Below, in pieces: positions 1 to 17,197 of a stretch of 64,000 nt of DNA. Positions within the stretch are counted from its first letter, which is position 1. Every line of letters starts with the position of its first letter. Location: the IMG/VR virus record IMGVR_UViG_3300025120_010521; one strand, written 5' to 3'. A model generated the notes under the pieces. It was not told the DNA's origin. It saw nothing but the letters and a program-made list of their open reading frames with translations, and searched no databases. The position numbers and the translations under genes were made by a program. Source of the stretch: a virus. Its lineage: Duplodnaviria > Caudoviricetes.

Positions 1-486
1 AGTTAACAACATACCCAATGAATCAATTACAAACATAACTTTTGGTCTCTCACTTTGCTCTAAAGATCCATAGTCTGCTCTGTAATTTGATACAAACTCA
101 GAAATAGTTTTTGCAACATCATCAATCATTGCAACGTTAATACGCATTAATTTTTCTGGGGATGTATCTACTTCAAGTGCTTGTAACCAATTTTCATCTA
201 ATGCATTTTCTGAATCAAATACGATACAAAATATGCCTTGCTTTTGTGCATTTTTGATAATATTACCAGAAGCAATTAAACTCTTACCAGAACCTGATTC
301 ACCTGCTAACATTGTTACACGACCTAGTGGTATACCTCTATTAAAGTCGCCACTAATCAAATAGTTTAAACAGTAGTTTCCCGTTGATATCCATGTGTCT
401 GGATCAGAGTCAAAACCTGTAGAAATACCACCAATGCTTTTTGTTATTGACTTTCTAAATTTACTTACGTCAAATGGTCTTACCAT
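1..486 (-). CDS. uvsX: UvsX/RecA-like recombinase, runs off the left edge of the window
   Basis: Manual translation from ATG at 486: MVRPFDVSKFRKSITKSIGG...RGIPLGRVTMLAGESGSGKS (Walker A)...VFDSENA...FVIDSLG (Walker B region). Confidence 0.9.
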   Translation of the reverse strand, partial: MVRPFDVSKFRKSITKSIGGISTGFDSDPDTWISTGNYCLNYLISGDFNRGIPLGRVTMLAGESGSGKSLIASGNIIKNAQKQGIFCIVFDSENALDENWLQALEVDTSPEKLMRINVAMIDDVAKTISEFVSNYRADYGSLEQSERPKVMFVIDSLGMLLT

Positions 487-549
487 AACTTCTCCTTACT
501 ATATTTGTAATAGTGCATGATTTCTCATGCACCACTACTATACTATATT

Positions 550-1563
550 TTACTTGTTTTGTCTAGCTCTAATCATAGCCAAAATATCATCTGCTGATGC
601 TTTTGACTTATCATCTGTTGCTGTTGCTGTAGCAGTTGCCACTTCTGGCTGTGCCACAGGTGCTTCTACTTTTGCTTGTACAACAGGTGCTTCTACTTTT
701 GCTTCTGCCTGTGGAGCAGGAGTTGGTGTAGCTGTTACTGTTGTTGTAGCAGTTGTAGATGCATTTGATTTAGATGACGCCATTCCAGGTGGTCTATAAT
801 GTTGACCAAATCTGCTTTCATCATATAATTCACCATCAACTGATGCTTTAAACATTTCTGCAATTATTTTTACATCTTCTGCAGAAGGTTTCTTAGGAAG
901 ATAATCACCTAAGTTGTGTAATCCGTGAGTATCAACTGCTGATCTTTCACTATCACTTACTGATCTTTCTTTGAAAGACCAAGTTGAAGTTGAATAATCT
1001 GCATACCCACCTTTTTGAGTTTTGGTTAATTTAAAGTCTCTACCTTTATCAATATCAGTTGGCAGATCTTCCATATCTGGATTCATCAATGCTGATCTAA
1101 TAATGTTAAAAATTGACGGATTAATTACAAAACGTCTAATTGGATTCTCTGGTGTTGAATCTTCTTCAAGTGGAGAGTTAACAACAAAACCTTGGAAAAT
1201 GTAAGAACGTTTTTTCCAATATTTTCTACCCATGTCTTCTAGACTTGGATCCTTAAACCATGGACGAATTTCACTTAATACTGGACATGGTTCTCCCCAC
1301 ATCTCCATACAAGGAACTTGTACTGTCGTTGGTTTAGCTTCAGATGATCCTTTAATACCAGCAAATGGTAATCTGATCATTTGTCTTTCTACCCAAAAGA
1401 ATGTATTGTTTGGATCTTTATCTGATAAAAATCTTAGTGTTGCTGTTGTGCCTTCAGGAATATTCCAGAACGGATAAATTGCGTTGTCGCCTCCTGAACT
1501 ATTTGGTGAACGTTTTACTTCTTGTTCTTGAAGCTTTGCTCTTATTTCTGCTAAAGTTGCCAT
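550..1563 (-). CDS. 32: Single-stranded DNA-binding protein, T4 gp32-like
   Basis: LRFLSDKDPNNTFFW, VPCMEMWGEPCPV and YWKKRSYIFQGFV motifs of the gp32 family; AGGAGA SD; located next to uvsX. Confidence 0.88.
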   Translation of the reverse strand: MATLAEIRAKLQEQEVKRSPNSSGGDNAIYPFWNIPEGTTATLRFLSDKDPNNTFFWVERQMIRLPFAGIKGSSEAKPTTVQVPCMEMWGEPCPVLSEIRPWFKDPSLEDMGRKYWKKRSYIFQGFVVNSPLEEDSTPENPIRRFVINPSIFNIIRSALMNPDMEDLPTDIDKGRDFKLTKTQKGGYADYSTSTWSFKERSVSDSERSAVDTHGLHNLGDYLPKKPSAEDVKIIAEMFKASVDGELYDESRFGQHYRPPGMASSKSNASTTATTTVTATPTPAPQAEAKVEAPVVQAKVEAPVAQPEVATATATATDDKSKASADDILAMIRARQNK

Positions 1564-1577
1564 AATGTTTTCTCCTA

Positions 1578-1619
1578 TATTAGCCTATGTTAGCCTGTGT
1601 TAGTATATGTTAGCCTATA
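1578..1619 (-). repeat. Four 10-bp tandem repeats in the gp32 leader, abutting the SD
   Basis: Plus-strand units ttagcctatg, ttagcctgtg, ttagtatatg, ttagcctata at 1580-1619; on the mRNA strand they read AGGCTAACA-type. Confidence 0.9.
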
Positions 1620-1651
1620 ATTAAATAATGTTTTAGTTAACATTATCTACT

Positions 1652-1680
1652 AGTATATTTATGTTTTATGTATTTGTCAA
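1652..1680 (-). promoter_or_regulatory. Sigma70-type promoter for gp32/uvsX
   Basis: TTGACA-N17-TATACT on the minus strand, followed by an 8-bp hairpin (1625-1646) at the predicted transcript 5' end. Confidence 0.8.
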
Positions 1681-1754
1681 GTATTTTTTTGGAGAAATTT
1701 TAGAGAAAAAGAACCATAGTTCGAAAACCTTAGGTTCTTTATTGGGAGGGAACT

Positions 1755-4082
1755 TTAAAGACCTGCTAGATCTTTAATTCTTTGGATATCTGAATCTTGT
1801 TCAGACTGTTCATTAACTTCGTAACCTGCATTTGATAATGCGTCAACAACAGCACTTTTTGGACTCATTGTGTGAATATTTACACCACCCTGCATCATTT
1901 CATTTGCATCGCATTGTGCTTTGATACCACCTTTTGCAAGATCATATTCCATATCTTTACAATCTTTATCAGTAATACCTCTGTCCATATCGTAGTCGCC
2001 ATCAACTTTAATTGTGTGCATGTGTGGTTCTGATTGTCCACCATATCCACTTGCTTCTGTTTTTGATTTTTCCATTTCGTCAGCAATTGCTCTTAACCAT
2101 TCTGGCTCTGATGGATTTCTATCACCATCTGATACATCAGCATAACCAATTGAGTCTGCTTCTTTTCTCAACATAGCAACAATTTCCTCTGTTGATTTTC
2201 CAGCATACTCACTTGTTGGATCTTTAATATCATCTTGTACAGCATCTTTGTAATCTTCAAAGTCTTGTTGTCCGTCTATTGCCATACTATCAAATTCTTG
2301 TCTTGCAACTCTATCCATATCTTCTGGTGACATTGGATTTTCTTTCATACCTTTTTCTTTAGCTTCTGCATCTAATTCTGCTTTACGTCTCATAATTTCT
2401 TTTTTAAGTTCTTCGTCTTTGTGTGTGTTTGGATCCATTTGGATATCTTGTATAGCTTTTTTCTTTGCCATATAATCTTCTTTATCTTTAATATCACCTT
2501 CATCAACAAATGATTCAGTTTTTATTTTTTTATATTCTGACATACAACTAGACGCCATCAACTTCATTTTTTCTTGATTACAGCCTTTGTATTTTTCACA
2601 AATTTCTTTTTCAGTCATACCCTTTTCGCAACATTTCATTACTTCTGCTTTTAAAGGCATTTTTTCTACTGCTTCAGCAAATGATTCATCTTCACCATAT
2701 GGTGCAACCATTTCTTCTAATTCTTTTTCTGGATTAGGAACAACGTCTTCTGCTTTTGGCAATGCTTCTGGCTCTGGTTTTACTGTTTTCATTTTTACGC
2801 CTTGAATAATTGCTTTTGCTGTTTCTTTTTCCCAATTTTGTATTTGATATGTTTCAGGATCTTGTTTGATCTTCATTTGTATATTTGGATCAGTTGCATA
2901 ATGTGTAAACTTATCTGAAAGTCTTGCAAGGAATACACTCATCTCATCATCTTTAATTCTTGAAGCTAAATCTGAAAGTCTATATGCCACTTTTGCATCT
3001 TTGTTTGTAAATGCACCAACATTTTCTGGATCGTATTCTTGTTGCGTTGCATTTGCTTGATGCACATCTACAGGATCACCTGATTTAATCTTTGTCATAA
3101 TTCTTTGTGCCATAGCTTGTGATGAATTGTCTTGTTCTTGTTTTGCTTCATCTACTATTGACTGTAATAATGGAAGTACTTCACCAATTTTTTCATCAAA
3201 TTTTGTAACTGTAAATTTACCTTTTAATTCTTCTAATGCTTCAATAGTTGGTTCTGTTGTTTCTACTGCTTTGTAATTTTCAGTAAAGTCATTATAACCA
3301 CTTGCAGTTGTTAATTTATGAATTGTACTTTTAATATTTGTAATTTTATCATTTACTAATGGTAAAATGTCTGCCGCTTGTTCTTGCACTTGTGAAAAAC
3401 GTCTTGCAAATTTTGTAACTTCTTTTAATTTTGCTAATTGATCTGATAAGCCAACAATTACTTCACCTAATTCGTCATGTGGTTTACCACCTTCTGCTAC
3501 GTGACGTGCCATTGCTCTTGCACCATTTAAATGTACATGAGGATACTTAAATCTTTCACCTTCTGATGTTTCTACAAAAATACCTGAAATATTTCTTGAT
3601 CTTGCGCCTCTGCTATTTTCATCAATAGGCTTACTGTGTCTTACGATTACTTTCACACCTTCAAGTTTTTGTTCACTTGTTTTTGTTGATCCTTGTAATG
3701 GTGTATAACCTTCTGTTTGTATATCCGTCATTGTATCTTCCTTACTTTGATCAATTTTAAATGCATAATTTTTTGGCTTTAATTCTTTACCAAATATTCT
3801 ATGATCAAAATCTAACATATAGCTTTTTGCAATATGCTTAATGTTATTTATAATTCCTTTGACATTTTCTTGTGTTTTCTCAGAACCTTGATGTAGCTTA
3901 ATTTCACTGTTTTCAGCATCTAAATGAATCATATAATTAGGCATTTTTACATAAAAATAGCGAGATTCTTCAGGATTAACTGTTTCATTACCTGTAGATG
4001 AGTCATACATCATAACTTCATGCCCAGATCCTTTGATAATCTTGAATATTTTATTCGATACTGTGTTAAAATCTACTGCCAT
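1755..4082 (-). CDS. Large conserved hypothetical protein, probable head-internal/structural protein
   Basis: 775 aa ORF with late promoter TAAATA-N5-ATG; acidic C-terminal half built of short modules; ends IQRIKDLAGL, similar to the scaffold end ELKKLAGLGVN. Confidence 0.55.
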   Translation of the reverse strand: MAVDFNTVSNKIFKIIKGSGHEVMMYDSSTGNETVNPEESRYFYVKMPNYMIHLDAENSEIKLHQGSEKTQENVKGIINNIKHIAKSYMLDFDHRIFGKELKPKNYAFKIDQSKEDTMTDIQTEGYTPLQGSTKTSEQKLEGVKVIVRHSKPIDENSRGARSRNISGIFVETSEGERFKYPHVHLNGARAMARHVAEGGKPHDELGEVIVGLSDQLAKLKEVTKFARRFSQVQEQAADILPLVNDKITNIKSTIHKLTTASGYNDFTENYKAVETTEPTIEALEELKGKFTVTKFDEKIGEVLPLLQSIVDEAKQEQDNSSQAMAQRIMTKIKSGDPVDVHQANATQQEYDPENVGAFTNKDAKVAYRLSDLASRIKDDEMSVFLARLSDKFTHYATDPNIQMKIKQDPETYQIQNWEKETAKAIIQGVKMKTVKPEPEALPKAEDVVPNPEKELEEMVAPYGEDESFAEAVEKMPLKAEVMKCCEKGMTEKEICEKYKGCNQEKMKLMASSCMSEYKKIKTESFVDEGDIKDKEDYMAKKKAIQDIQMDPNTHKDEELKKEIMRRKAELDAEAKEKGMKENPMSPEDMDRVARQEFDSMAIDGQQDFEDYKDAVQDDIKDPTSEYAGKSTEEIVAMLRKEADSIGYADVSDGDRNPSEPEWLRAIADEMEKSKTEASGYGGQSEPHMHTIKVDGDYDMDRGITDKDCKDMEYDLAKGGIKAQCDANEMMQGGVNIHTMSPKSAVVDALSNAGYEVNEQSEQDSDIQRIKDLAGL

Positions 4083-4087
4083 ACTAT

Positions 4088-4093
4088 TATTTA
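4088..4093 (-). promoter_or_regulatory. Late (gp55-type) promoter, ATG at predicted +1
   Basis: GATAAATA-ATAGT-ATG on the minus strand. Confidence 0.65.
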
Positions 4094-4100
4094 TCCTATA

Positions 4101-4709
4101 CTACCAATATATTCTACCCATATGACTTACCCTATTAAAGCTCTCTTCCTGTTGAGGCACAGAATGATAGCTTCTATCTGTATTAATATAAGCAAAAAAC
4201 ACTCCCGGTAAGCATGGTAATTGTTTAATTTTTGGTCGCCAATTACTTTTATCTTCAGTTAAATCGTGCATCCATAATCCTGTATTTTTAAAATCAATAG
4301 TGTCTGGCAAATATAATTGATAAGTTATACACATAGTATAATTTTCATTGTTATCATCATTTACATTTTTTAAACAATGCATATCTGTGTGAGGTGGCAA
4401 ACTTGCACCTTTTGTATGCCAAGTATTTGTTTGATTTACCAAATATTTGCTAGGTAGATCATAACCTAGTTTATTAGATAATGTTTTACAAAAATCATCA
4501 CTAACAAAATGCTCAAAATTTTTGTTATCATTGGATATTCGTACACAACCTTTCATATCTGGATGATTATCATAATGCCAACTAAACTCATTTTGAATTT
4601 TTTTACTTAATTCTATTGCTTGAGTTGTTTCTAAATAGTTTTCAGCAACAATACATTGCCATGGCTCACTAATAACTGTGGATTTTTTTATTTTTTCTAA
4701 GTCAAACAT
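4101..4709 (-). CDS. 2OG-Fe(II) oxygenase superfamily protein
   Basis: LPPHTD (HxD), distal SYHSV, and C-terminal R (FNRVS). Confidence 0.7.
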   Translation of the reverse strand: MFDLEKIKKSTVISEPWQCIVAENYLETTQAIELSKKIQNEFSWHYDNHPDMKGCVRISNDNKNFEHFVSDDFCKTLSNKLGYDLPSKYLVNQTNTWHTKGASLPPHTDMHCLKNVNDDNNENYTMCITYQLYLPDTIDFKNTGLWMHDLTEDKSNWRPKIKQLPCLPGVFFAYINTDRSYHSVPQQEESFNRVSHMGRIYW

Positions 4710-4715
4710 TTTATT

Positions 4716-6311
4716 TTATATAATTATTGGCATTGGTTCTTGCCAATCGTCATCATCTTCAAGTTTAGCACCTAATGACTCTTCCATTGTAGCATCATAC
4801 TTGGTTAAGAAATCAGTCATACGTACTACTAGTAATAATGCTGATACTAGATCATCATGTTCTCCTGATTTAGCTTCAAAAGAGTTTCCTTTTGCAACAA
4901 ATACTTTAAGTTCTCTTATAAGTGGTCTAGAATATAATGTAATTTTGTCAGCTTCTATCCACTGTTTAAGTTTTGAACAAGCAGTAACCTTCGACTTGTT
5001 GGTTGTATTGTAACCTTTACGCACTACTCTACGTTGTTGACCACCTCTACGTGGTTCATGTAAGAAATATCCAGGAAATTTATCTTCGCCCATTTCGTCA
5101 ACAGTTACAATTGCGGCTTCACCAAGTGTATTATTTTCAATTGTCCAATATATTTCTGGATTTGGTGTACCACTTGCTCGTAACTGTTGATCTATTTCTT
5201 TGAGTATGCTGTGCATGACTCTAACTTGCCCCTGGATAGGCGTTTTATTGTGTTGCCATTCAGCAACTTGCTTAAAATCTGGTAGGCTAAACACTTGTAT
5301 AGCGGAATAGTCGCCGCCTGTACCCAAACACGGATCTAATGATACAAGATATGTATTGCCTTTTTGTACTTTTTGATACCAACGCACTTGACCGTGTTTT
5401 ACTAAAGGTTGTGTACCTTGTAGTGTAACTAATTTTATACCATCAATTAGTGTTTCATCAAACGCAATAAACTCACATTCATGCTCACGTCTAAATCTTT
5501 CTTCACCTATACGTTGTCTTTCTTCTTTAGCCCAATCATCATTTCTTTCAGGATGTTGACTCCAGTGTACGAACTTTGGTCTAAAACCATTTAGTCCTAC
5601 ATCTGCTGGATTGCCATATTCGTCTTGTAACTTGTTAGCACCTCTCCACAACTGTGCAAATAGATCATCATCATTGTTTGGTGTTGATGTAATAATACAT
5701 TTACCACCTGTTGACAATGTTGGAGATAGTGAAGTCCAAAATTCTCGTGCTTTGTTCTGTGGTTCTACGAATGCAAACTCATCCATGTATATCATTGATA
5801 TGGACATACCACGTCCTGTTGTTTCTGTGGTTGTTTGTGCTATAATTCTTGACCCATTATCAAAATCCATTGATCCTTTATTATAACTTGTTACCCCACA
5901 CCTAATATAATCTGGTGTTTCTTCATATGCAAACCTTACACGTTGCATAATGTCTTGTGCACCTTGATATTTGTGTGCCGCAATTAATATTAATGTGTCC
6001 GGATGAAACATTGCATACCATAATAAGTACCCTGCGGCACAGGTTGTCTTACCTGTTTGCCTTGCACACATGGCTATTGCAAATCTATATCCATTGTATG
6101 TTTCTAATAGCTCTTCTTGGAATGGATATGGATCAAATTTCATACGTCCTTTGGTAGGATGTTGAATCCACATGTGTGATTTCATAAAATGTAGGTAACC
6201 TGTTTCTAAATCTGCACACTTTTTTAAATCTTGTAATTGTTGTTCTGTGTATTTAGATCTTGAATATGCTTTTTTGACTAGGTTGCCTTCTAAAACTTTA
6301 CTACGTGCCAT
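4716..6311 (-). CDS. 17: Terminase large subunit, T4 gp17-like
   Basis: ARQTGKTT Walker A, TGRG motif, IYMDEFAF Walker B, ITSTPN coupling motif, nuclease motifs LDPCLGTGGDYS and HDDLV. Confidence 0.95.
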   Translation of the reverse strand: MARSKVLEGNLVKKAYSRSKYTEQQLQDLKKCADLETGYLHFMKSHMWIQHPTKGRMKFDPYPFQEELLETYNGYRFAIAMCARQTGKTTCAAGYLLWYAMFHPDTLILIAAHKYQGAQDIMQRVRFAYEETPDYIRCGVTSYNKGSMDFDNGSRIIAQTTTETTGRGMSISMIYMDEFAFVEPQNKAREFWTSLSPTLSTGGKCIITSTPNNDDDLFAQLWRGANKLQDEYGNPADVGLNGFRPKFVHWSQHPERNDDWAKEERQRIGEERFRREHECEFIAFDETLIDGIKLVTLQGTQPLVKHGQVRWYQKVQKGNTYLVSLDPCLGTGGDYSAIQVFSLPDFKQVAEWQHNKTPIQGQVRVMHSILKEIDQQLRASGTPNPEIYWTIENNTLGEAAIVTVDEMGEDKFPGYFLHEPRRGGQQRRVVRKGYNTTNKSKVTACSKLKQWIEADKITLYSRPLIRELKVFVAKGNSFEAKSGEHDDLVSALLLVVRMTDFLTKYDATMEESLGAKLEDDDDWQEPMPIII

Positions 6312-6316
6312 ACTTG

Positions 6317-6324
6317 TATTTATA
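6317..6324 (-). promoter_or_regulatory. Late promoter TATAAATA for terminase, ATG at predicted +1
   Basis: TATAAATA-CAAGT-ATG, an exact T4 late consensus. Confidence 0.75.
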
Positions 6325-6340
6325 CTAATTAAATGCGTAC

Positions 6341-6604
6341 TTAATGGATATTGAAGATATCGTCAACTGGATTAAATTCAACTTGTTTTAAATTTCCTGC
6401 ATATGACAAATATATATCTTTTATACGTGCTTCAACATTGTCATTCCAATGATTTAAAAATTTGTGTGCTTTTGGAAACTGTGGAGGTATATCTGAAAAT
6501 TGCCACATGAATAATTGTAGGATACTTTCGTAATCCGGCATCCAATAATACACTTTTATTGTTGTTATTCTTGCATCTTTGAGTATTTGATCTCTAATAC
6601 GCAT
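6341..6604 (-). CDS. Usg-like family protein
   Basis: TTIKVYYWMPDYESILQLFMWQFSDIPPQFPKAHKFLNHW resembles the Usg pattern TT.I.Y.MPD...LQ.F.WQ..D..P.FP...FL..W; preceded by TATAAATA-N5-ATG. Confidence 0.7.
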   Translation of the reverse strand: MRIRDQILKDARITTIKVYYWMPDYESILQLFMWQFSDIPPQFPKAHKFLNHWNDNVEARIKDIYLSYAGNLKQVEFNPVDDIFNIH

Positions 6605-6622
6605 ACAAATATTTATAAGGTA

Positions 6623-6994
6623 TTAGGATACGAGTAATATGATAATATAATAAGTTAGATAATGTAGGCCTTGGTCGATTGACGACAAGAACCAATAACC
6701 TTTTGACGGAGATTTTATACCAAGTCTTTTTTGTGTTGAACTTTTTAAGAAATCAATATGCCAATGTGCTAGATAATCACATATACCAAAAAGAATTGCC
6801 AACGGCCATGGTATAAAAAACAACAACACAAACATTGTACCAAGCCCATGTTGTGCATAATGCACCTGTGCTGATAAAGAAGTGTATATAGATTTTTTTT
6901 GATTATAGGTTAATAGACTTTGGATCCATAAATCAATAACACAATGTTTGATTAGTAGGAAAAAAAATAAACTACTTACAACAACCGCAGTCAC
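6623..6994 (-). CDS. DUF3307-like membrane protein
   Basis: Hydrophobic helices with KH..D..Q, H..QH, H.HID..K and DQ..H motifs. Confidence 0.7.
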   Translation of the reverse strand: MTAVVVSSLFFFLLIKHCVIDLWIQSLLTYNQKKSIYTSLSAQVHYAQHGLGTMFVLLFFIPWPLAILFGICDYLAHWHIDFLKSSTQKRLGIKSPSKGYWFLSSIDQGLHYLTYYIIILLVS

Positions 6995-7038
6995 AATGTT
7001 TACATTCTTCTGGACAATTGTGATTACACTTTTCGCAT

Positions 7039-7350
7039 TTACTGTTGTTCATTTTTAAAACTTTCATACTCTTCTGCTAAACGTGATTCTTTATCTTCCA
7101 AAGTTTCTTCAATTGGATTGTCACCTTGTCTAGCTGGAACAAATCTCAACTTACGTTGTGCTTTCTTTGATGGTGTAAGTGCATCTATGTCAATTTCTTG
7201 CTCATCTGGTTCATTAGTGCCAGCAACTTCTACTTCTTCTTGTGCAACTTCTTCATCTGCTTGATTCTGTACAACAAGAACAGTTGGTTGGATACCAGCG
7301 AGTGTAAGTAATCTTGACAACACATCATTTTCGTTAATTTTGTCTGACAT
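7039..7350 (-). CDS. Acidic hypothetical protein, probably head-associated
   Basis: 103 aa, Glu-rich, contains RLLTLAGI and RLAEEYESFK motifs. Confidence 0.5.
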   Translation of the reverse strand: MSDKINENDVLSRLLTLAGIQPTVLVVQNQADEEVAQEEVEVAGTNEPDEQEIDIDALTPSKKAQRKLRFVPARQGDNPIEETLEDKESRLAEEYESFKNEQQ

Positions 7351-7919
7351 TACTTTTTCCCTTTCGCAATATAGCTTGTAACTTTTGATTCTGCTAATCC
7401 GGTTACTACTTCGACATTGCCACCTTCTTTTTTCTGAGCCTTAGCAAGTCCTTTTAGAAAACCTTCTTTTGATTTTTCGTCATGTATGATATTATCTGTA
7501 TCTGATGAATCTTCTTTTTTATAATCTTCACCTGTGATTGGTACATAATCATTATCAGATTTTTCAGCATTTAATCTTTCTTGTTCTTGGTGTAAAGGAT
7601 CACCATCATGTTGAACAATCACTGACTCATATGGTAGTCCCATGTGATCTGATAAATGTCTTGATAATGTTTGATATGAAATTGGCATAGCTGTTGTAAC
7701 TTCAATAATAGTTACTTCTGTGTTAGTAACGTTTGCTGGAAAATCCAATGGATGTTCTTGCATAATAGTTTTTTTAGGACTACCTATTTTTACTACACTG
7801 TATGGTGCTAATGCTAATTCCATAGCATTTAAATGTGAATCTTCAAGTACACCTGCAATTTTTACTTTAAATGTGTACTCTTTTACTGCTTCAACTAGAT
7901 ATTCTTTAAATGTTTTCAT
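7350..7919 (-). CDS. Conserved hypothetical phage protein
   Basis: 189 aa, starts MKTFKEYLVE (propeptide-like); late promoter at 7939-7944. Confidence 0.55.
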   Translation of the reverse strand: MKTFKEYLVEAVKEYTFKVKIAGVLEDSHLNAMELALAPYSVVKIGSPKKTIMQEHPLDFPANVTNTEVTIIEVTTAMPISYQTLSRHLSDHMGLPYESVIVQHDGDPLHQEQERLNAEKSDNDYVPITGEDYKKEDSSDTDNIIHDEKSKEGFLKGLAKAQKKEGGNVEVVTGLAESKVTSYIAKGKK

Positions 7920-7937
7920 CGTAAGTTTCCTATATTT

Positions 7938-8528
7938 TTATTTATCTTTTTTATCGTTATCTACTCTATCTAAGATCTGCTTTAATAGTTCATTACGATC
8001 ACCAACAACGTACCCTTCGCCCTCAACAATATCAGCTGAATTATCGCTAGTTTTGTTCATTTGGTCAACTCTTTCTTTTTTTAGTTGTAGTTCAACCATG
8101 CGTAATTTCTTTTCTAATTTGGCATTTTTAGCCTCTACAGCATTTTTAAGCATAGTAGAAGCTACTTCAAACAGTTTTCCTGAATGTCTTACTTCAACAT
8201 TCATTCCTAAATTCATTAAATCTTGATATGATTTCATAGCTTCTGTGGCGTACATATCCATATCTTTATCTTCAGCATCAAGTCCTGTTACTTGTGGTAA
8301 TGCACGATCAATCTTTTCAGCAGTTGTTATTGCTTTCATAATTGGTGCTGGATCGGTGTTCTTGACGCTATCTTCTTCATCTTGCTTATTTGGTTCCTTT
8401 TGAATTTCTTCTTCGCTGTTCTGATGTTGCGTATTTTCTGCTTTGGTGATAGTCTCATGCTCATCTGAATTCTCCTTGGCTTGATCTATAATATCTTCCA
8501 TTGGTATTTTGTTTTCTTTTTCGTTCAT
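7938..8528 (-). CDS. Candidate terminase small subunit
   Basis: Helical/coiled-coil core (FEVASTMLKNAVEAKNAKLEKKL) and C-terminal VVGDRNELLKQIL, reminiscent of the gp16 tail; close to terL. Inference only. Confidence 0.45.
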   Translation of the reverse strand: MNEKENKIPMEDIIDQAKENSDEHETITKAENTQHQNSEEEIQKEPNKQDEEDSVKNTDPAPIMKAITTAEKIDRALPQVTGLDAEDKDMDMYATEAMKSYQDLMNLGMNVEVRHSGKLFEVASTMLKNAVEAKNAKLEKKLRMVELQLKKERVDQMNKTSDNSADIVEGEGYVVGDRNELLKQILDRVDNDKKDK

Positions 8529-8560
8529 AATCAGTACCTATTAACTACGTATATAATTAT

Positions 8561-9460
8561 TTATCCAAGTTGTGCACCATTATCAAACTTTACGCCGCCT
8601 GATATAGTAATATGCTCGTAGTCTGCTTGATATCCTGAATTATCTCCACTAGCAAATATTGTTGACATTGTTGATGTGTTTGGTGCTGTTAAAACTTTTG
8701 CCGCAGTATCTAAATATAATTGATGCCCTAATGGATTATAACTTTGTACTCCTGCAGAATTAATTGCACTATCATTCCATTCTGGATCCATTGACGTTGC
8801 AAAGGTTGATATGTATCCCCATTCAGCCGCTAATAACAAATAATAATATTCTCTCATTAACAATGCTCTAAAGTCTGGATCACTAAATGATCCTGAATAA
8901 CTTGATGTATCAAATATTGGATTTCCATTTGATCCATTTGTTGTTCTTGCTTGTTGCATTGCATTATAGATATCACTTGTTTGATTAGTTTGATTCATTT
9001 TTGTTGCAAATGCTTGTGGTAAACCATAAACAGTAATTGTATGTAATAGATGTTCAACAACTTCCATCACTGCTCCATTACCTGCAGATACTTCCCAAAT
9101 AAAATCTACATTTGGATTTGTATATTTTGTATAATCAATTCCTGGATAGTTGTCATTGGCATTGTCTTCTACTATACCTGGTGTGTATGCACTTGGTTGA
9201 CTATACCCAATTAGTTGTGCTGTATTTGTTTCTAACATTTTATTCATTACAGTGTTTTGATCTGTTGTGTTAATTGATCCACCGGAACCAAACATAAGTT
9301 CAACTGTCTTTGCAACTTTTTTAATCCAACTATCCGATACTGCTGTTGCACCACCAATACCAGGAAGTGCTAATAACTTAATTCCGTTTACTAAACAAAT
9401 TTTAGTCCATGGAGTGTAACCAGCTGTTGTTGTAATTGGACCTCCTGTTTTTACTGACAT
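8561..9460 (-). CDS. Hypothetical protein with possible zincin-like metal-binding helix
   Basis: MEVVEHLLHTITVYG plus a distal REYYYL motif; not a canonical HEXXH. Confidence 0.4.
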   Translation of the reverse strand: MSVKTGGPITTTAGYTPWTKICLVNGIKLLALPGIGGATAVSDSWIKKVAKTVELMFGSGGSINTTDQNTVMNKMLETNTAQLIGYSQPSAYTPGIVEDNANDNYPGIDYTKYTNPNVDFIWEVSAGNGAVMEVVEHLLHTITVYGLPQAFATKMNQTNQTSDIYNAMQQARTTNGSNGNPIFDTSSYSGSFSDPDFRALLMREYYYLLLAAEWGYISTFATSMDPEWNDSAINSAGVQSYNPLGHQLYLDTAAKVLTAPNTSTMSTIFASGDNSGYQADYEHITISGGVKFDNGAQLG

Positions 9461-9463
9461 AGT

Positions 9464-9895
9464 TTACCTTTTCTTTAATTTATATATAGAATCTTCATTT
9501 AAAATTCTAAACATTATTCCTTTACGTTTACACCACTCACCTGCCGCTTTCCATTTTGCTCTGTTCAATGCAATAGTGGCTCTATCTTTTGTAGTCTTTG
9601 CCGCTTCTTGAATTGTTTGAGCTCTTGGTTTTACCTCAATCATTTCAGCACGTGGTCTGCCATTCTTAGTTAAGTATTGTATTAAGAAGTCTGGCACGTA
9701 CACAGTATACTTACCTGTAAACGGATTACGATATGGTATTTTAACTGGCTCACTTGACCACGCAACAATATTTGGATTAGTGTCACAAAACTGCATAAAC
9801 ACTGCTTCCCAACTAGATCTATATATTGGTACACGTTGCCCAACATACTTGCGTGGGTTTTTTGGTTCAAATTGTCCTTGTTTAAAATAAGCCAT
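9464..9895 (-). CDS. 4: Head completion nuclease, T4 gp4-like (TnsA-type PD-(D/E)xK)
   Basis: QGQFEPKNPRKYVG, YRSSWE, WSSEPVKIPY, YVPDF, IEVKP, NRAKW. Confidence 0.85.
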   Translation of the reverse strand: MAYFKQGQFEPKNPRKYVGQRVPIYRSSWEAVFMQFCDTNPNIVAWSSEPVKIPYRNPFTGKYTVYVPDFLIQYLTKNGRPRAEMIEVKPRAQTIQEAAKTTKDRATIALNRAKWKAAGEWCKRKGIMFRILNEDSIYKLKKR

Positions 9896-9914
9896 CAGTA
9901 GTATTTAACCACTA

Positions 9915-10355
9915 TTAATAGGCAATCATTCTTTTAATATGATTTGGAACTTGTGAAACTGTAATTGTTGTTCCAATTTGACTAGTTATTGGACGATAAT
10001 GATTAACTAGTGTTAGTCCTAAATTTGAAAATTTAATTGGATCTGTTATACTATCAAATAACTCATCAAATTCAATATTTAAAGTTTTAACTGCATCAAT
10101 ACAAAGATATGCATAGGCTTTTGCAATTTGTCCATCCATTCCTGCCGCTGTAAAAATTCCAAGTATTCGATCATATTTTGCTGGAGATAGTTGCGACTGT
10201 ATTCCACCATATTGATTTAATATTAATGTTGTAACATCTTCTGCAGATAAATTTGGTTGTGCATTTTGTAACGCATTAAATACGTTTCCAAATAGAGAAA
10301 CTATTTGTGACTCTCCACCTACTCTTGCTATTAATTTTGTACTTTGATTAGCCAT
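9915..10355 (-). CDS. Hypothetical protein in tail operon
   Basis: 146 aa ORF coupled to the 10355..12037 gene. Confidence 0.5.
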   Translation of the reverse strand: MANQSTKLIARVGGESQIVSLFGNVFNALQNAQPNLSAEDVTTLILNQYGGIQSQLSPAKYDRILGIFTAAGMDGQIAKAYAYLCIDAVKTLNIEFDELFDSITDPIKFSNLGLTLVNHYRPITSQIGTTITVSQVPNHIKRMIAY

Positions 10356-12037
10356 TATCTATAACTTGCTCCTCCGCCTGTTGGCGAACTGTTGCCTTTT
10401 TTACGTGTTGCATTTCCATTTGCATTTTTAGTTATTTTGCCATTAACGACATTAGATTTTGATTTTGTTTCAACATAATTTTTACTATCTGGATTATTTC
10501 TTCCTGATCCAGCGGCCGCAGTTTGAAAAGCACTACCCCAGTTACCAGATACAAGTCCTGATGTTGCTGACTTTGTAGTTCCATATACACTTGAAGCTAC
10601 ATTTGAAATGGCGTCACTAAATGGTGTACTACTTATTTGACTTAGATCGGCACTCATTTTAGATAAATCACTTTTGAATCCACCGTACACAGAGTCGCCG
10701 CCATCTGTACCAGTATTAAACGATCCATTTGTACCTGCATTAGTTCCATTGCCAAATACTCTAGCTGATTGTTCATCTGGTATTGATGCAGACATTTTTG
10801 TCCAATCATAATCTGGATTTTCACTTGTACCATCACTACCTTCTGTTTCTGCTTGAGCTGTTGTAGGTGTGTCTGGCATTTTTAAACTGTTTTCAAATAA
10901 TTCGTCAAAGTCAACTGCAACATCATGTGATGATGCTGACATATCATAGTTTAGTGTTTCATATACAACTGTTTCATATGCAAATTGTAAACCAAGTTCA
11001 ACTGGTGTACTTGATTCATATGTTAGTACATCATGATCCATTGCAATAACTTTAGGATGTATAAATCTAATTAGATTATATTTTCCGCCATGTACAATAA
11101 ACAAGTCTAAACTTTTGATTGGATATGTATGACTTATTGTACTCGATTCAAGACCAAAGTTATGTTGATTTATAAACTGGTCTTCTCTTATTAGTGGATT
11201 TGGTGAATATAATCCTTGATTACTTTGTGTGTCTCCACCATACTTTTTACTTCTGTTTCTACCATCTTTTAAATTTAATTCGTACAAATATCTCCAAAAT
11301 TTTAATGCTGTATTATTCATTGTATCGTAAAAACGTACACTTACTGGATCATAATCAACACGTCTATACACATTTCTTTTTCTGTTGTATTGATTTAATG
11401 TGTCATATTGAAAATTAACTTTTGGTCCGTCAATTTGTTTTACGTTAAAAACTAAAGAACGTCTAACAGTTTCCATAACTTGTTGACGTTTTGATTTTAA
11501 ATCATTATGTTTTTTTGATAAATTCTGTTGGGCCATGGCATCTATACCGCCGCCACTATAACTATTAAAGTTGTTTGCATTATTACCAGCCGCTTGAATA
11601 TCTTTATCTAAATTTTCAATTTCAGAATCACTAAAAATTGTATCAAATTGACTATCAGCTGAAAATCTAAATGTTGCAACATACTCAAACTTCTGCCTTG
11701 GTACACCTGTCATTTGTACCATAGGTGCTTGTCTTAGAGTAAAATTATCTTGTGCTCTTGTAGGTGGTTGAATATTTGGTGTGCCTGAATCTGATGGTGA
11801 TCTACTAAATGGTTCTTGTGAACTAGTTTTTGCGTTAGCGTCAGCTTTACCTTTTAGGTTAGCAATAGCCGTGGCATTTTGATCTGCCATTATGTTTGCT
11901 AGTTGCTGATCGCCACCATCTCTAACTGCATTTATTTCTGATTCAGTGAACACCGAAGCAGTTGTGTCCATCGATGAAAACAACTTTTTCTGCTCCGGTG
12001 TTAATTTTTTTGGTTCAGTGTCCCAAGTATCTGCCAT
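10355..12037 (-). CDS. Tail-tube-fold protein (tube initiator or second tube-like) with long low-complexity extensions
   Basis: Central VKQIDGPK...DTLNQYNRKR...VDYDPVSVRFYDT...LQFAYE pattern typical of gp19/gp54-like folds; directly downstream of the tube gene. Confidence 0.55.
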   Translation of the reverse strand: MADTWDTEPKKLTPEQKKLFSSMDTTASVFTESEINAVRDGGDQQLANIMADQNATAIANLKGKADANAKTSSQEPFSRSPSDSGTPNIQPPTRAQDNFTLRQAPMVQMTGVPRQKFEYVATFRFSADSQFDTIFSDSEIENLDKDIQAAGNNANNFNSYSGGGIDAMAQQNLSKKHNDLKSKRQQVMETVRRSLVFNVKQIDGPKVNFQYDTLNQYNRKRNVYRRVDYDPVSVRFYDTMNNTALKFWRYLYELNLKDGRNRSKKYGGDTQSNQGLYSPNPLIREDQFINQHNFGLESSTISHTYPIKSLDLFIVHGGKYNLIRFIHPKVIAMDHDVLTYESSTPVELGLQFAYETVVYETLNYDMSASSHDVAVDFDELFENSLKMPDTPTTAQAETEGSDGTSENPDYDWTKMSASIPDEQSARVFGNGTNAGTNGSFNTGTDGGDSVYGGFKSDLSKMSADLSQISSTPFSDAISNVASSVYGTTKSATSGLVSGNWGSAFQTAAAGSGRNNPDSKNYVETKSKSNVVNGKITKNANGNATRKKGNSSPTGGGASYR

Positions 12038-12059
12038 TGGTTACTCCTTAGGTCAAATA

Positions 12060-12659
12060 TTATAAACCTGTTCCAGTACCAAATGTTAATGGTGCACGTG
12101 GAAATAATTCGCCGCCGCCTTCGCCAAAGTGTGTTGCATTATCATATCTCATAGTCATGATAACTTGCACTGGTTCTGATACCGCATAATCACCGTCTGA
12201 ATAATCTACGTTTTGTAAGAAACAACCTTCTAGATTCCATTGTTCTAATTCAGCATCGCTTGAACCATCTAAAATTTCAATTTTAGTTGTAAATTTATAT
12301 TGAGTTCCGCTGGTTGGACCAGTTTGCTCAAAGTGGTTCATTTGTTTCTGAACTTGTTGACCTGTTAATCTAGAGATACTGTTGTTCATATCATCACGTA
12401 AAGTAAGTGTGATTGGCTCCCATGTGTGTTTGCCCATTAAGTATGCTACTGAGTTGTAAACGTGTACAGGAACTTCTTCGTGTGTTACTTTTGGTCTTGT
12501 TACGTTCATAACCTGTTGAGTTAAATCAACTGGGTTAGCACCTAAGTTACCAAAACCTGTAAAACGTACTCTAAAACGATATTTAAGTTTAGGCTGTAAA
12601 ATACCGCCTCTACCTGTAGCACCGTCTATTGGAACGCCAAATTTGTTTAATGTAGCCAT
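12060..12659 (-). CDS. 19: Tail tube protein, gp19-like
   Basis: QPKLKYRFRV, GKHTWEPITLTLRDD, WNLEGCF, MRYDNA; immediately downstream of the sheath gene. Confidence 0.85.
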   Translation of the reverse strand: MATLNKFGVPIDGATGRGGILQPKLKYRFRVRFTGFGNLGANPVDLTQQVMNVTRPKVTHEEVPVHVYNSVAYLMGKHTWEPITLTLRDDMNNSISRLTGQQVQKQMNHFEQTGPTSGTQYKFTTKIEILDGSSDAELEQWNLEGCFLQNVDYSDGDYAVSEPVQVIMTMRYDNATHFGEGGGELFPRAPLTFGTGTGL

Positions 12660-12745
12660 TGTAATCTCTCCTTACAAATTAATTTGTATTAATAGTATTT
12701 AGTCAAATATAGGAAAATTTAAGAAAAAGTTTGATGTTAAAGGGT

Positions 12746-12783
12746 AAAAAAAAGGCTACTGCATCTCTACAGTAGCCTTTTTT
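12746..12783. terminator. Intrinsic terminator after the sheath gene, possibly bidirectional
   Basis: A8-GGCTACTG-catctcta-CAGTAGCC-T6. Confidence 0.85.
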
Positions 12784-12798
12784 AGTGTATTTTGTCTA

Positions 12799-15789
12799 TT
12801 AATTATAGCTCATATTCTCACCAGTGTTCTTTATTCTGATCGGAATATATATAAACTCTGCCGCTTTCGCTGGCTGTATAGCTATATCGATCCACATCTG
12901 GTTAGCATCAATACGTGTTGCTGTGTTGTTTGATTCATCACAAACAACTAAGAAGTCGTATAATGCTCTTTTTGAAGCCAAGTCTGCTAAAAATCTTTCA
13001 AAAGTATCAGACACTTGATCTCTTGTCATTCTATCATTTAATTCAAATAAGAATGGTTTTGCAAGTTGATCAAATTGATATCTTAAGTAACAAATTAATC
13101 TGGCTACGTTAACTCTATCAAGTGCTGATGCTGTTGAGTGCAATGTTTTTTGACCAAACACTGTTAAACCTCTGTTAGGCATAAACGCAATTGGGTTAAC
13201 TTTTTTAGAGTATAATGTATCTCTTGAACCTTCACTTAATACAACTGAATTATATTCACCTGTTGCCGGGTCAATATAACCAACTGATGATGCATTTGAT
13301 ACTAAACCTCTTTGATAACCTGCTGGAGCAAACCACTGGAATGCCGCGTTATCACTTGAAGCAATAGTTCTTAATGCTACATGTGAAGCTGGAACAACAA
13401 CGTTGTTACCTGCTAAATCAGTTGATAGTGCTGATGGATAGTAAACAGCTGAGTAAGTGTTGCTTGTTACTAGTCCGTCTTCACCGTTAGTTGTTGCGTT
13501 TGCTGAGTTTGATATCCAATTAGATACTTCTGAAGGAGTTTTTAATCTAAATGGAGCATCAAGAATAACAAATGCTGTTTCTTTTCTTGCTGTGTTAAGT
13601 GCAATCATTTCATCATATGTTTCTGGGTAACCAGGACATGCAATTAAATTAAAGAATCTTGATTCTGCTTTAATTTCATCGTTGCTAACAAATGCTGATT
13701 GTAGTGAAGTTACTACAACTTGTCTTTGTGCTTTTCTACCCATGTATGGTGAACCATCTGGTTTATTACCAGCCGCATTAATCCAAATTGGACCAATGTC
13801 TGCACTGTTTACAACATAAGATGTTTTATATCTTTTAACATTATAACCAGACACTCTTGTGTTAAACAATAGTGTACCAGCCGCATAGTTTGCCGGATCA
13901 ACTGCATCTGAATCAAATGATGCGTATGTTGAACCCCAACCTACTGCCGCGTCTGTTGTACCTGCTGGGTTACCTACTGCATCACCGAACACAATGCCTG
14001 AAGCTGATGATTGATCAGTATTATCTAATAATACCCATGCACTTGTACCTGTATTATATTTGTAAATTTTTGGATATGCTTCTAGCTCGTTTGAGTCAAT
14101 CCAAATGTCACCATTTTCTAGTGCTGTACCATCTGACTGTTTAGTTGGTTCAGTTGATACCATTTGTAAGTCTCTTATACCTGCCGCTTCACCGTTTGGT
14201 CCTGTGTTAACATTACCTGCTGTAAAGGCGTCTTTTGAGTTAGCATAAGCAAACCATTTCATTGTACCACCGTCATTTTCAGCAATATACATATCTGCTG
14301 TTAAGTTAGTGTCGTACCATAGTGTGCCATCTACAGGTGAACTTGTTGGTGCACTTGCTGATGCTTCGTATGATAAGTTGCCCCAAATTGAAGCCATGTA
14401 CCATGAATCAGAACCTGAAGCCATATTATCTGTAAAGCCTAAGTTTGCAGTTGTTGTACCAATCACATTACCTGCTGTTGCTGTATCTTCAATCCAAATG
14501 TTTTTACCATTTGTTCTTTCAAGTTTTAAGTACTCTTTTGTACCTGAACTTGCTTCAATTGATGCTACAACTGTTTTAGCAGTTAATGATGCATCGTTGT
14601 TAATACCAGCAACTATTTCTGCTAGTGTTACATTTGAAGCCGCACCGCCTGCCGCTGTTACTGTTACATCAACGTTACAAATGTTCATTTTAAGACCAGT
14701 TTGACCTGCTGTTAAGTCAATACCGTTACCTGAAAGGTCAGCTGTTCCTGTAGTTGATGTTGTAGTTGCTGTACCTCTTAATTTGATCTCGTATGCTACT
14801 TCTGGTGTTGAGTTGTTTGCTGTTTGTTTGTATGTTGCATTGTCAATTCTATCATTGTTCCATGCCGCATCCATGTCATCATCAAACATTGTGTAAAGTG
14901 AATTTGCCGCTGGTGTTAAGGCTGTAACAGCATTGTCATCATCAGCATATAATGGTGATGAAATTGTTGACCATGTTGATGTTGATGTTGAATAGTATTT
15001 TACTACTACGTTAGCACCGCCACCTACTGTTGTTGTCTTAATCCAAACTGAACCTGCAGTTGAGGCACTTGGTGCCGCACCTGAACCTGGTTGCATATAC
15101 ACAACTGGCGTACCTGATTTTGCAGTTACCCATGTATCCGCACCTACTTGGTACCATTGTCCTGAAACTTTTTCCCAAAGTTTTGCCGGAGTTGCTGATG
15201 CAACTACAACAAAGTTACCGTTGGCACCGTATGATGATTTTGGTGATTTTTCAGTATCGTTGTTTACGTTTGATGTTGCTGATGTACTAGGTGTATCAGT
15301 TAGTACCGCTGGAGTAATTTTGCTCCATGCTGTACCGTTTGTTTGGTATACACCCCAATTAGTTGATGCTGTATCTAACCAGTACGTACCATTTGCTGGT
15401 GCACTAGTTGGAACAGATGTTGAACCTGTAAGTTCTGCTGAATCTACATCAGCACGAACTACGTATGCTCTATTCGAAATTCCTAAATATGAATATGCGG
15501 CTAATAAACCGTATTCATTTCTTTCATCCCCTGGTAACATTGTTGAACCAGCTGAATAAAATGTTGGTGTACCGAATGTTGATAACAGTTCTCTCTGTGA
15601 ACCAATTAAATACGCTTTACCCACGTTAGCACTGGTAGTACCTACTGCTGTAGAACCTGTAGAACTTGGATCAGCTTTATTTTGTGCTGATGCCACTACA
15701 AATAATGGTACTGTACCTTGTGCCGCGCCGGCGTAAAACGATTCATCAGTTACTGTAACTGAAACACCCGGTGAAACTAAATCTGGCAT
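12799..15789 (-). CDS. 18: Tail sheath protein with large inserted domains, gp18-like
   Basis: N-terminal LVSPGVSV, C-terminal KKVNPI, GQKTL, LDRVNVARL, CDESNNT and IQPAKAAEFIYI; 996 aa. Confidence 0.93.
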   Translation of the reverse strand: MPDLVSPGVSVTVTDESFYAGAAQGTVPLFVVASAQNKADPSSTGSTAVGTTSANVGKAYLIGSQRELLSTFGTPTFYSAGSTMLPGDERNEYGLLAAYSYLGISNRAYVVRADVDSAELTGSTSVPTSAPANGTYWLDTASTNWGVYQTNGTAWSKITPAVLTDTPSTSATSNVNNDTEKSPKSSYGANGNFVVVASATPAKLWEKVSGQWYQVGADTWVTAKSGTPVVYMQPGSGAAPSASTAGSVWIKTTTVGGGANVVVKYYSTSTSTWSTISSPLYADDDNAVTALTPAANSLYTMFDDDMDAAWNNDRIDNATYKQTANNSTPEVAYEIKLRGTATTTSTTGTADLSGNGIDLTAGQTGLKMNICNVDVTVTAAGGAASNVTLAEIVAGINNDASLTAKTVVASIEASSGTKEYLKLERTNGKNIWIEDTATAGNVIGTTTANLGFTDNMASGSDSWYMASIWGNLSYEASASAPTSSPVDGTLWYDTNLTADMYIAENDGGTMKWFAYANSKDAFTAGNVNTGPNGEAAGIRDLQMVSTEPTKQSDGTALENGDIWIDSNELEAYPKIYKYNTGTSAWVLLDNTDQSSASGIVFGDAVGNPAGTTDAAVGWGSTYASFDSDAVDPANYAAGTLLFNTRVSGYNVKRYKTSYVVNSADIGPIWINAAGNKPDGSPYMGRKAQRQVVVTSLQSAFVSNDEIKAESRFFNLIACPGYPETYDEMIALNTARKETAFVILDAPFRLKTPSEVSNWISNSANATTNGEDGLVTSNTYSAVYYPSALSTDLAGNNVVVPASHVALRTIASSDNAAFQWFAPAGYQRGLVSNASSVGYIDPATGEYNSVVLSEGSRDTLYSKKVNPIAFMPNRGLTVFGQKTLHSTASALDRVNVARLICYLRYQFDQLAKPFLFELNDRMTRDQVSDTFERFLADLASKRALYDFLVVCDESNNTATRIDANQMWIDIAIQPAKAAEFIYIPIRIKNTGENMSYN

Positions 15790-15919
15790 TGTAATCTCTC
15801 CTTCATAAATTATAACAACTATTGCGTTGTCATGTTATACATTATTTATTAGAAGTTGGGTAAAAGAGGGTGGTTTAAGCACCTATATTTTCCCCTTTAA
15901 AAGGGCAGTAAATACATAT

Positions 15920-16276
15920 ATGATAGACAATAGACCATTATGTAGTAAGTGTAAGTCTAGACCAGCCGCCTTTAATTATAAAAAAGGTGATAAGACGTAT
16001 TATCGCAAGATGTGTGATAAATGTATACGTCTAAGTAAAGGCAAAGGTGTAAGCTCTACGTCTACATGGCAACAAACAGGTTATAAAAAGAAAGCTATAT
16101 GTGAGAAGTGTGGATTCAAAGCAAGACACCCTGCACAGTTAGACGTTTATCATATTGATGGTGATTTAAGAAATAGTGCTTGGAATAATTTAAAAACTAT
16201 ATGTGCTAATTGTCAACGTATTATGACTATGGAAGAATTTAGGTGGCGTCAAGGTGATTTGATGCCTGATAATTAA
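15920..16276 (+). CDS. Zn-finger/HNH-like protein; start reassigned from 15827 to 15920
   Basis: Several CxxC pairs and YHIDGD..N...NL..ICANCQR; TAAATA-N5-ATG places the start at 15920, in frame with the ORF track. Confidence 0.65.
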   Translation: MIDNRPLCSKCKSRPAAFNYKKGDKTYYRKMCDKCIRLSKGKGVSSTSTWQQTGYKKKAICEKCGFKARHPAQLDVYHIDGDLRNSAWNNLKTICANCQRIMTMEEFRWRQGDLMPDN

Positions 16277-16935
16277 AATGAAGTTTCTGTGCGTTTTTCT
16301 TTTTTTACATTTTTTAGAACTTTAGACACTGAATTAATTTTATCATGCAGTTGCTCTAATGTACCATTATTTTCAATAATAAAGTCTACTAGCATACCAG
16401 AATGATCCCACTCACTTGCATGTATACCAATATCAGATAATTGCTGTATAGCAAACTCGTCACCATTTTGAGCCTCTGTTGCTAACGATGTCCAATGCGG
16501 ATCTTCTCCTCGTTTTACTCTAATTGTAAACCCGCCCATTTGTTTAATAAAAGCAAGTTCATTTCTAAATCTACAATCAGTAATAACAGTTGGCTTTTGT
16601 CCATTAGCAATATATCTATGTTCTAAACTATCTAACCAAATCTTATGATGAAAATGTTCTCTAAATAGTTCTGTACCTACAATTTGTAATGCTAATCTTG
16701 GAGTAAAATTTTTAATGTTTAATTTAGATGCCCAATAAGGATCAACACATTCTCTAAAATGTCTACTATGATCAGTATCACCTTCTAATGTTTTTCTAGG
16801 CCAATTAAATATATTTGCTGTAGCATCTTTTAAAGGTGCGGCAAATGAATCTTCCTTATAACCATGCTGTGCTGACAGCACTTCAGCTACAGTATTTTTT
16901 CCACTACCTATCCAGCCTACTAATCCAATAATCAA
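16273..16935 (-). CDS. 1: Deoxynucleoside monophosphate kinase, T4 gp1-like
   Basis: IIGLVGWIGSGKNT P-loop, SFAAPLKD, TPRLALQIVGTE, ITDCRFRNE, HASE. Confidence 0.88.
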   Translation of the reverse strand: MIIGLVGWIGSGKNTVAEVLSAQHGYKEDSFAAPLKDATANIFNWPRKTLEGDTDHSRHFRECVDPYWASKLNIKNFTPRLALQIVGTELFREHFHHKIWLDSLEHRYIANGQKPTVITDCRFRNELAFIKQMGGFTIRVKRGEDPHWTSLATEAQNGDEFAIQQLSDIGIHASEWDHSGMLVDFIIENNGTLEQLHDKINSVSKVLKNVKKEKRTETSF

Positions 16936-16936
16936 T

Positions 16937-17197
16937 TTACCACCTCAATTTTAATTGTGTTGCAATGTCTTCGCTATCAACTTTTACAGTTAATTCATCA
17001 CAGCCAGCATTTTCCCAATGCCAATCTGTTTCATATTTGTAACCAAGCATACCCATGTAGTTTGCAACTCTGGCTACTGCATCAACTTCTCTATAGTTGG
17101 CATTAAGAGCTCCACCTTCAACACTAGTACCTGTTGACTGTCCTATGTACTCGTCTCTTTTAGAAATTTTATCTACATCTAATGTAACTTCAATCAT
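16937..17197 (-). CDS. Hypothetical protein
   Basis: 86 aa ORF directly behind a sigma70-type promoter. Confidence 0.55.
   Translation of the reverse strand: MIEVTLDVDKISKRDEYIGQSTGTSVEGGALNANYREVDAVARVANYMGMLGYKYETDWHWENAGCDELTVKVDSEDIATQLKLRW

Follow-up and report, generated by a model that had tools for sequence, protein, structure and literature searches.

Repeated Words Shared by the Leader of a gp32-like SSB Gene and a Structured Noncoding RNA in Uncultured Phages

Introduction

Gene 32 is a textbook example of autogenous translational regulation; such control of the gene is known only from the T-even phages, and its specificity is still unexplained. In bacteriophage T4, a pseudoknot at the 5' end of the gene 32 leader nucleates binding of gp32, which then coats an unstructured tract of UUAAA/UAAA repeats up to the ribosome-binding site (PMC535899, PMC3014915). 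The gene 32 operators of T4 and RB69 diverge in sequence, and repression is nevertheless kept (PMC535899, PMC3014915). A review of T4 calls for study in diverse relatives, and T4 has no characterized regulatory RNA that acts in trans (PMC3014915).

Here we describe a locus of the gene 32 type in a 64,000-nucleotide stretch of DNA (hereafter the window, meaning the whole stretch that was analyzed) from the viral record IMGVR_UViG_3300025120_010521 (Duplodnaviria; Caudoviricetes). Like the operators of T4 and RB69, it is the 5' leader of an SSB gene in which a structured 5' element is followed by unstructured repeated words that continue to the ribosome-binding site. Unlike in T4, the word is AGGCW(A/C)A rather than UUAAA/UAAA, and the 5' element seen is a hairpin rather than a demonstrated pseudoknot. 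The window phage also differs from T4, which has no second, noncoding locus bearing its operator words. It is this second locus sharing the leader word that is new here, the leader itself being a probable variant of the gene 32 operator type. In the literature, we found no prior description of SSB-leader operator words that are shared with a conserved structured noncoding RNA (ncRNA).

Other known systems resemble parts of this arrangement. CsrB and RsmZ are sRNAs that sequester CsrA and RsmA, which are translational repressors. As in CsrB/RsmZ, the ncRNA described here has several copies of a word that is also present at or over the Shine-Dalgarno (SD) sequence of the target leader. Unlike in CsrB/RsmZ, the AGGCW words lie in open single strands (a tail and a linker) and are not GGA elements in hairpin loops; there are 3-6 copies together with a large conserved folded body, a single target mRNA is visible, and no CsrA-like partner was identified. 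The T4 RegA protein offers another likeness, as a phage protein that acts on unstructured sites overlapping the start regions of replication genes, and may be compared with the two-leader pattern of phage Atu_ph07 described below. Its sites in T4 are A/U-rich and are not tandem arrays, unlike the words in the window, and gene 32 is not a listed RegA target in T4. The iterons of plasmids and phages are direct repeats associated with autoregulation by the initiator. The same direct repeats are likewise found here at a presumed origin-like noncoding element and before a replication gene, but unlike iterons the words are 9-10 nt long, variably spaced, always transcribed in the sense direction, located inside a folded RNA and without an adjoining initiator gene.

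Results

The features of both loci are collected in Table 1. The window SSB is a distant relative of T4 gp32. Its ORF matches the Pfam gp32 family weakly (E 7e-4), the annotated SSBs of Phosso, PA5oct, Atu_ph07 and GAP32 are 46-61% identical to it, and a UvsX/RecA gene (uvsX) lies downstream. Upstream of the SSB gene is a gene for a 775-aa acidic protein (1755-4082, minus strand), which has no Pfam match and is syntenic with genes annotated as 'structural/hypothetical' that precede SSB in PA5oct-like phages.

Table 1. Coordinates of the features at the SSB locus and at the noncoding locus in the window
Feature	Position	Strand	Remarks
gp32-like SSB gene	550..1563	(-)	337 aa
SD AGGAG (1576-1572) and ATG (1563-1561)	1561..1576	(-)	
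Four 10-nt units (three AGGCTAAYA, one ATACTAACA)	1578..1616	(-)	unstructured tract adjoining SD
5'-proximal 8-bp hairpin of SSB mRNA	1625..1646	(-)	sole stable element in leader fold
SSB promoter, TTGACA-N17-TATACT, sigma-70-type	1652..1680 (TTGACA 1680-1675, TATACT 1657-1652)	(-)	consensus at 11/12 positions
ORF-free gap holding the ncRNA	38572..39181		610 bp
ncRNA promoter, TTGACT-N18-TATACT	38607..38636	(+)	conserved in homologues
5' tail, word copies 38647-38655 and 38680-38688	38643..38699	(+)	unpaired in consensus fold
Domain I, closing helix GCAAC/GTTGC	38700..38763	(+)	compensatory changes in helices
Single-stranded linker, third word 38771-38779 and conserved AAATGATG	38764..38793	(+)	
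Structured core, covariance model R1	38812..38989	(+)	
Twin perfect hairpins	39057..39103		3' edge of conserved block; conserved with the element in subgroup A
ncRNA family members	window 38607-39110; L088-L094, L101-L108, L124, L147-L199	(+) in window	

A preliminary description of this DNA had reported that 10-nt repeats of the AGGCTAAYA type run into the SD of the gp32 leader and that the leader begins with a hairpin, giving it a T4-like layout. We find both to be correct. Read in the direction of the mRNA, the units are AGGCTAACA (1616-1608), ATACTAACA (1606-1598), AGGCTAACA (1596-1588) and AGGCTAATA (1586-1578). A fifth unit, AGGAGAAAA, follows on the same minus strand and contains the SD. 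The 8-bp hairpin at 1625-1646 precedes them, and the repeat tract between it and the ribosome-binding site is unstructured. The leader as a whole folds no more stably than its shuffled counterparts (z-score -0.14); beyond the 5' hairpin one weak downstream pairing is predicted before the start codon, and general folding, as distinct from dedicated pseudoknot prediction, gives no evident pseudoknot partner.

This layout is preserved in relatives. IMG/VR contains hundreds of relatives of the window SSB, from which 80 loci with 58-86% identity were kept. The leaders inspected have a sigma-70-type promoter of the TTGAC type at the same place as in the window, and they keep the 5'-proximal hairpin in a different sequence with compensating changes. 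Between the hairpin and the SD lie 2-6 words of the type AGGC(A/T)(A/C)A. AGGC is found 169 times in the sense orientation in 61 distinct leaders and 0 times in antisense, and its density of 2.77 per 90 nt compares with a background of 0.218 (~13x). The strict avoidance of the complementary word points to selection for accessibility. An unbiased k-mer count in the leaders returns AGGC, AGGCA and ATAGGC as the most enriched, and the five leaders without AGGC carry TGGCA(A/T/C)A. The SD is fused to the last word (GGAGGCW) in 37 of the 61 leaders, so that the word overlaps the ribosome-binding site. The spacing between words is 10 nt in 27 cases, 12 nt in 22 and 14-17 nt in 46. The earlier argument for a DNA-binding initiator, that a 10-bp repeat corresponds to one helical turn, therefore fails in the relatives, where all of these spacings are common.

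Cultured distant relatives also have short tandem words before SSB, but different ones: TAGCACAAT in Atu_ph07, ACGGTACA in Vibrio phage 2.275, AGAAGCAAA in GAP32 and GGCTC in Phosso. The Atu_ph07 word recurs in tandem 74 kb from the SSB leader, where TGGCACAATTAGCACAAC (NC_042013.1, about 2606-2623) lies within the 5' leader of the gene for the large subunit of topoisomerase II. This recurrence suggests that a word of this kind can label at least two targets, and the two genes could form a small translational regulon in this cultured giant phage.

The preliminary description had further placed three same-sense copies of the word in a noncoding element 37 kb away. These are indeed present on the plus strand, as AGGCTAATA at 38647, AGGCTAACA at 38680 and AGGCTAATA at 38771. 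Outside the two loci the word is rare. With both strands of the 64-kb window considered, AGGCTAAYA has 6 matches, where 1.24 are expected, and 0 of 100 shuffles reach 6. All six lie either in the SSB leader (minus strand) or in the noncoding element (plus strand), and every one is in transcript sense. The shorter AGGCTAA is without significant enrichment in the window (10 vs 6.3 expected), and when a clade-wide position matrix, which is dominated by AGGCA, is used, the ncRNA ranks third or fourth among the clusters and is no unique outlier. The signal therefore resides in the lineage-specific 9-mer, in its clustering and in its conservation in relatives.

The close relative G001, whose contig of 328,149 bp is complete and carries terminal repeats, allows the same comparison across a whole genome. 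It has 15 matches to AGGCWAAYA, and these are clustered in no more than two places, the ncRNA (197192-197309) and the SSB leader (232937-232965); ten singletons were inspected and lie mostly within coding frames. Tandem words of the form AGGCWMA-N0-15-AGGCWMA are confined in G001 to the same two loci, and the controls gave no match. In G006, clusters of three AGGCW words are found at the ncRNA and the SSB leader and at one further site. This further site is presumed to be coding, and the additional AGGCW clusters of G007 and G009 fall within long ORFs and were attributed to chance.

Homologues of the ncRNA were collected by exact-pattern scans, which gave 14 from IMG/VR and 49 that are real among 54 metagenome matches; 43 distinct sequences have the full 5' part. 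Members of the family are ~400-470 nt long and have a hairpin capped by GNRA or UAAC and the conserved AAATGATG. Applied to 13 sequences, RNAalifold predicts 59 pairs, and compensatory changes are seen in 27. With a covariance model of the 178-nt core, 57 matches could be aligned, and 42 of these are distinct. In the alignment of these 42 sequences 96.7% of the cells are paired, compared with 85.2% after shuffling, and 0 of 500 shuffles reach 96.7%; 18 of the 38 pairs change on both sides, and the covariation score is 0.42, vs <=0.105 for slid partners. The model also detects a diverged copy in G008. By this comparative evidence, the second locus is a real structured RNA. Rfam searches with the window and diverged homologues, at gathering and permissive thresholds, returned nothing at gathering and chance-level matches with E >1 (three diverged homologues), and a tRNA/tmRNA scan found none. 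A small ORF at the conserved AAATGATG was considered and rejected, as its peptides are unconserved and the differences are compensatory for the helix.

The words of the ncRNA fall in its unpaired parts, namely a 5' tail of 35-57 nt and a linker of ~29 nt between domain I and the core. The tail cannot be aligned between the two subgroups of the family, yet all 43 of the 43 homologues carry 1-4 GGCW words there. The linker has 1-2 words in 42 of the 43, the exception being L172, where parsing of the linker failed; the tail of L172 is a perfect 10-nt array of RCTAAYAT units. The total comes to 3 words in the window and 3-6 across the 43 homologues.

The family is always found in a gp26-like / PDDEXK_15 nuclease / gp46 neighborhood, and no conserved partner gene adjoins the ncRNA, the neighbor varying among a 115-aa protein, a PDDEXK nuclease and a GIY-YIG-like gene. 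In the window, back-to-back promoters of the sigma-70 type (38563-38636), both TTGACT...TATACT, serve the gene for the 115-aa protein (minus strand) and the ncRNA (plus strand). The twin hairpins at the 3' edge may mark where the ncRNA ends, may terminate transcription on the minus strand, or may do both. In the minus-strand reading, the downstream hairpin of the pair with its T-run is terminator-like for a 383-aa gene, and a terminator-like site was called there; subgroup B has two different hairpins at the place of the twin hairpins. The ncRNA has no detectable homologue in the cultured relatives PA5oct, Phosso, GAP32 and Vibrio 2.275. It was found neither by BLAST nor by the covariance model in G007, G009 and G010, which are SSB-bearing fragments (13-33%) also without the PDDEXK neighbor and too incomplete for the ncRNA to be called absent, and G011 has one weak partial match.

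Whether both loci keep the motif, or change it together, had been raised as a means of judging their connection. The motif is kept, as seen in the four genomes with both loci, the 61 leaders and the 43 ncRNAs. Both loci occur together in the window, G001, G006 and G008, four genomes that amount to about two independent contrasts, and in all four the variants of the two loci agree. The window and G001 have AGGCTAA at both loci and G008 has AGGCACA at both, and G006 combines an AGGCA(A/C/G) ncRNA with a leader of mostly AGGCA(A/C) words. In the ncRNA, T has a fraction of 0.91 at position 5 for subgroup A, against 0.03 for subgroup B, and in the leaders its fraction goes from 0.64 to 0.42 to 0.15 with falling identity of the SSB to that of the window. 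The choice between T and A at position 5 moves in parallel at the ncRNA and the leader, as a common tendency rather than a strict match because W is tolerated there. Antisense pairing between the ncRNA and the SSB leader gives duplex energies that are no better than those of shuffled controls in three genomes.

Contigs of four metatranscriptome runs, from three samples and studies, were compared with the window, of which 21 kb were examined. Over 38200-39500, the solid contig matches all fall inside the ncRNA, at 38781-38949 with 100% identity in two runs of one sample, and contigs from relatives cover 38661-38932 and 38693-38798. Over 1-20000, the same sample has one near-identical place, 1426/1437-1650, which is the SSB leader and the start of the coding region. 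These SSB contigs end at 1650, 2 nt past the -10 box, and in a third run the greatest depth is at the SSB region. Both RNAs are thus present in RNA libraries, in contigs that give no strand, ends or abundance and may include DNA carry-over. That other genes have no contigs argues for RNA over such carry-over.

Discussion

The leader has the same architecture as that of T4 and its word often overlaps the SD, which suggests that the array can be read as a translational operator like that of T4 gene 32 but spelled with another word. The words extend from the 5' hairpin to the ribosome-binding site, overlapping it in most relatives, and cooperative occupation of the array would block initiation of translation. 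By analogy with gp32, the SSB may bind its own leader in autogenous control. The ncRNA, roughly 450 nt long, presents the same words in accessible single strands and has the same kind of early promoter, and for these reasons it is expected to meet the same ligand, which would bind it through the words of the unpaired tail and linker. It could then act as a sponge that tunes the free repressor, or it could use the factor for a function of its own or to recruit a cofactor. Binding, the identity of the ligand, repression, titration and the direction of control are the steps of this scheme that we infer.

We regard it as probable that one factor acting at the RNA level reads both loci. The fuller proposal, in which AGGCW(A/C)A words serve at the RNA level as operator sites of a single factor that binds single strands in trans, with the SSB as the likeliest candidate, and the ncRNA is a competitor or co-ligand, is finely balanced and leans slightly to the doubtful side. 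Identification of the shared factor with the SSB itself, which draws on the gene 32 analogy, is plausible but somewhat less likely than not. An OB-fold SSB that prefers a word containing G and C would be unusual, the 5' element of the leader is a plain hairpin, and the structured part of the ncRNA lies 3' of the words, a polarity opposite to that of the leader. The cultured relatives (PA5oct, Phosso, GAP32 and Vibrio 2.275), moreover, use other leader words and have no detectable ncRNA. That the tail and linker of the ncRNA mimic the operator of the SSB mRNA, bind the SSB or its repressor and so set the amount or delivery of SSB is conceivable, though somewhat unlikely.

The same logic of operator and competitor would apply if the binder were a dedicated RNA-binding repressor of the phage or host, RegA-like or CsrA-like and with several targets, and not the SSB. 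The invariant GGC suits a sequence-specific protein better than an SSB, the SSB and topoisomerase II leaders of Atu_ph07 form a regulon-like pattern, and the last word lies over the SD, as CsrA sites do. We nonetheless consider such a repressor unlikely, as the complete G001 has no match to T4-type RegA (PF01818) in a search run without a positive control, no conserved candidate gene travels with the ncRNA, and the clusters in the window and G001 are limited to two loci, which leaves no wider regulon. A different reading dispenses with a dedicated protein altogether and takes the words as weak pseudo-SD sites for the 30S subunit, which would form a standby platform that boosts SSB translation and, at the 5' ends of both RNAs, protect against 5'-end-dependent decay. 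An AUAGG context is common to the words and the true SD, which closes the array, AGGCWAA stands immediately before the ATG of a few other G001 genes, and both RNAs look abundant in the RNA libraries. However, position 4 is always C, even though AGGA would improve pairing with the anti-SD, and ATACTAACA and the RCTAAYAT array of L172 lack AGG while retaining the 3' half of the word. The internal linker copy would also be unexplained, and a noncoding RNA needs no 30S loading. Taken together, these points make the pseudo-SD explanation improbable.

The preliminary description had offered two alternatives, an RNA that titrates a translational repressor of SSB and a DNA-binding initiator for which the repeats are operator and origin iterons. 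The RNA-level alternative is the one that fits better, since the copies are in transcript sense, unpaired, part of a covarying RNA and overlapping the SD, and the initiator is disfavored. Some origins have structured primer RNAs (ColE1 RNA II), and this counts for direct repeats that are read as DNA by an initiator or repressor, with the noncoding element as an origin, as do the 10-bp period in the window leader and in some ncRNA tails and the AT-rich flanks and twin hairpins beside the element. Against them, spacing in relatives is variable (10, 12 and 14-17 nt), every copy is in transcript sense downstream of a promoter even though the loci are on opposite strands, one copy has a conserved place inside a covarying RNA, and no Rep-like gene adjoins the element; GC skew is uninformative about an origin. 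Taking these together, we hold a DNA-level role to be very unlikely. It may also be that there is no shared factor, the arrays being unrelated or the ncRNA tail being a copied leader segment that is kept for local reasons, for example because it is unstructured. A-rich words with one GGC are easily made by slippage, and generic AGGCW clusters also arise by chance in genes. We find this decidedly improbable, given that the tail sequence has turned over between ncRNA subgroups while the words persist in 43 of 43, that the variant changes in parallel at both loci, and that the complementary word is strictly avoided in the leaders.

On the reading that we prefer, a common single-strand binder of both RNAs, a large uncultured marine clade shows what appears to be a differently worded SSB operator, on which selection is clear. 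With the ncRNA, the leader provides a concrete ligand pair with a defined word to mutate. Should the link between them hold, the supply of SSB would be tied to an RNA, and there would be a first functional handle on a widespread unclassified family of phage ncRNAs. If true, the proposal that the ncRNA mimics the operator would add a protein-titrating or protein-recruiting regulatory RNA to a T4-like replication system, where no trans-acting regulatory RNA is known.

The ncRNAs of the cultured relative PA5oct are abundant and share no word with the PA5oct SSB leader. One of these, ncRNA002 (L200, MK797984.1 21951-22401), is highly expressed and 451 nt long, and one TAGGCAACA lies close to the annotated 5' end; this RNA gives no match to the covariance model, and the TAGGCAACA is probably a coincidence. 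In L104, L105, L108 and L124, a gene of 173-186 aa with a GIY-YIG-like N-terminal motif lies directly against the ncRNA on its upstream side. In G008, the first word contains the stop codon of the GIY-YIG-like gene, with no visible promoter. These GIY-YIG-like neighbors suggest homing-endonuclease traffic beside the RNA gene.
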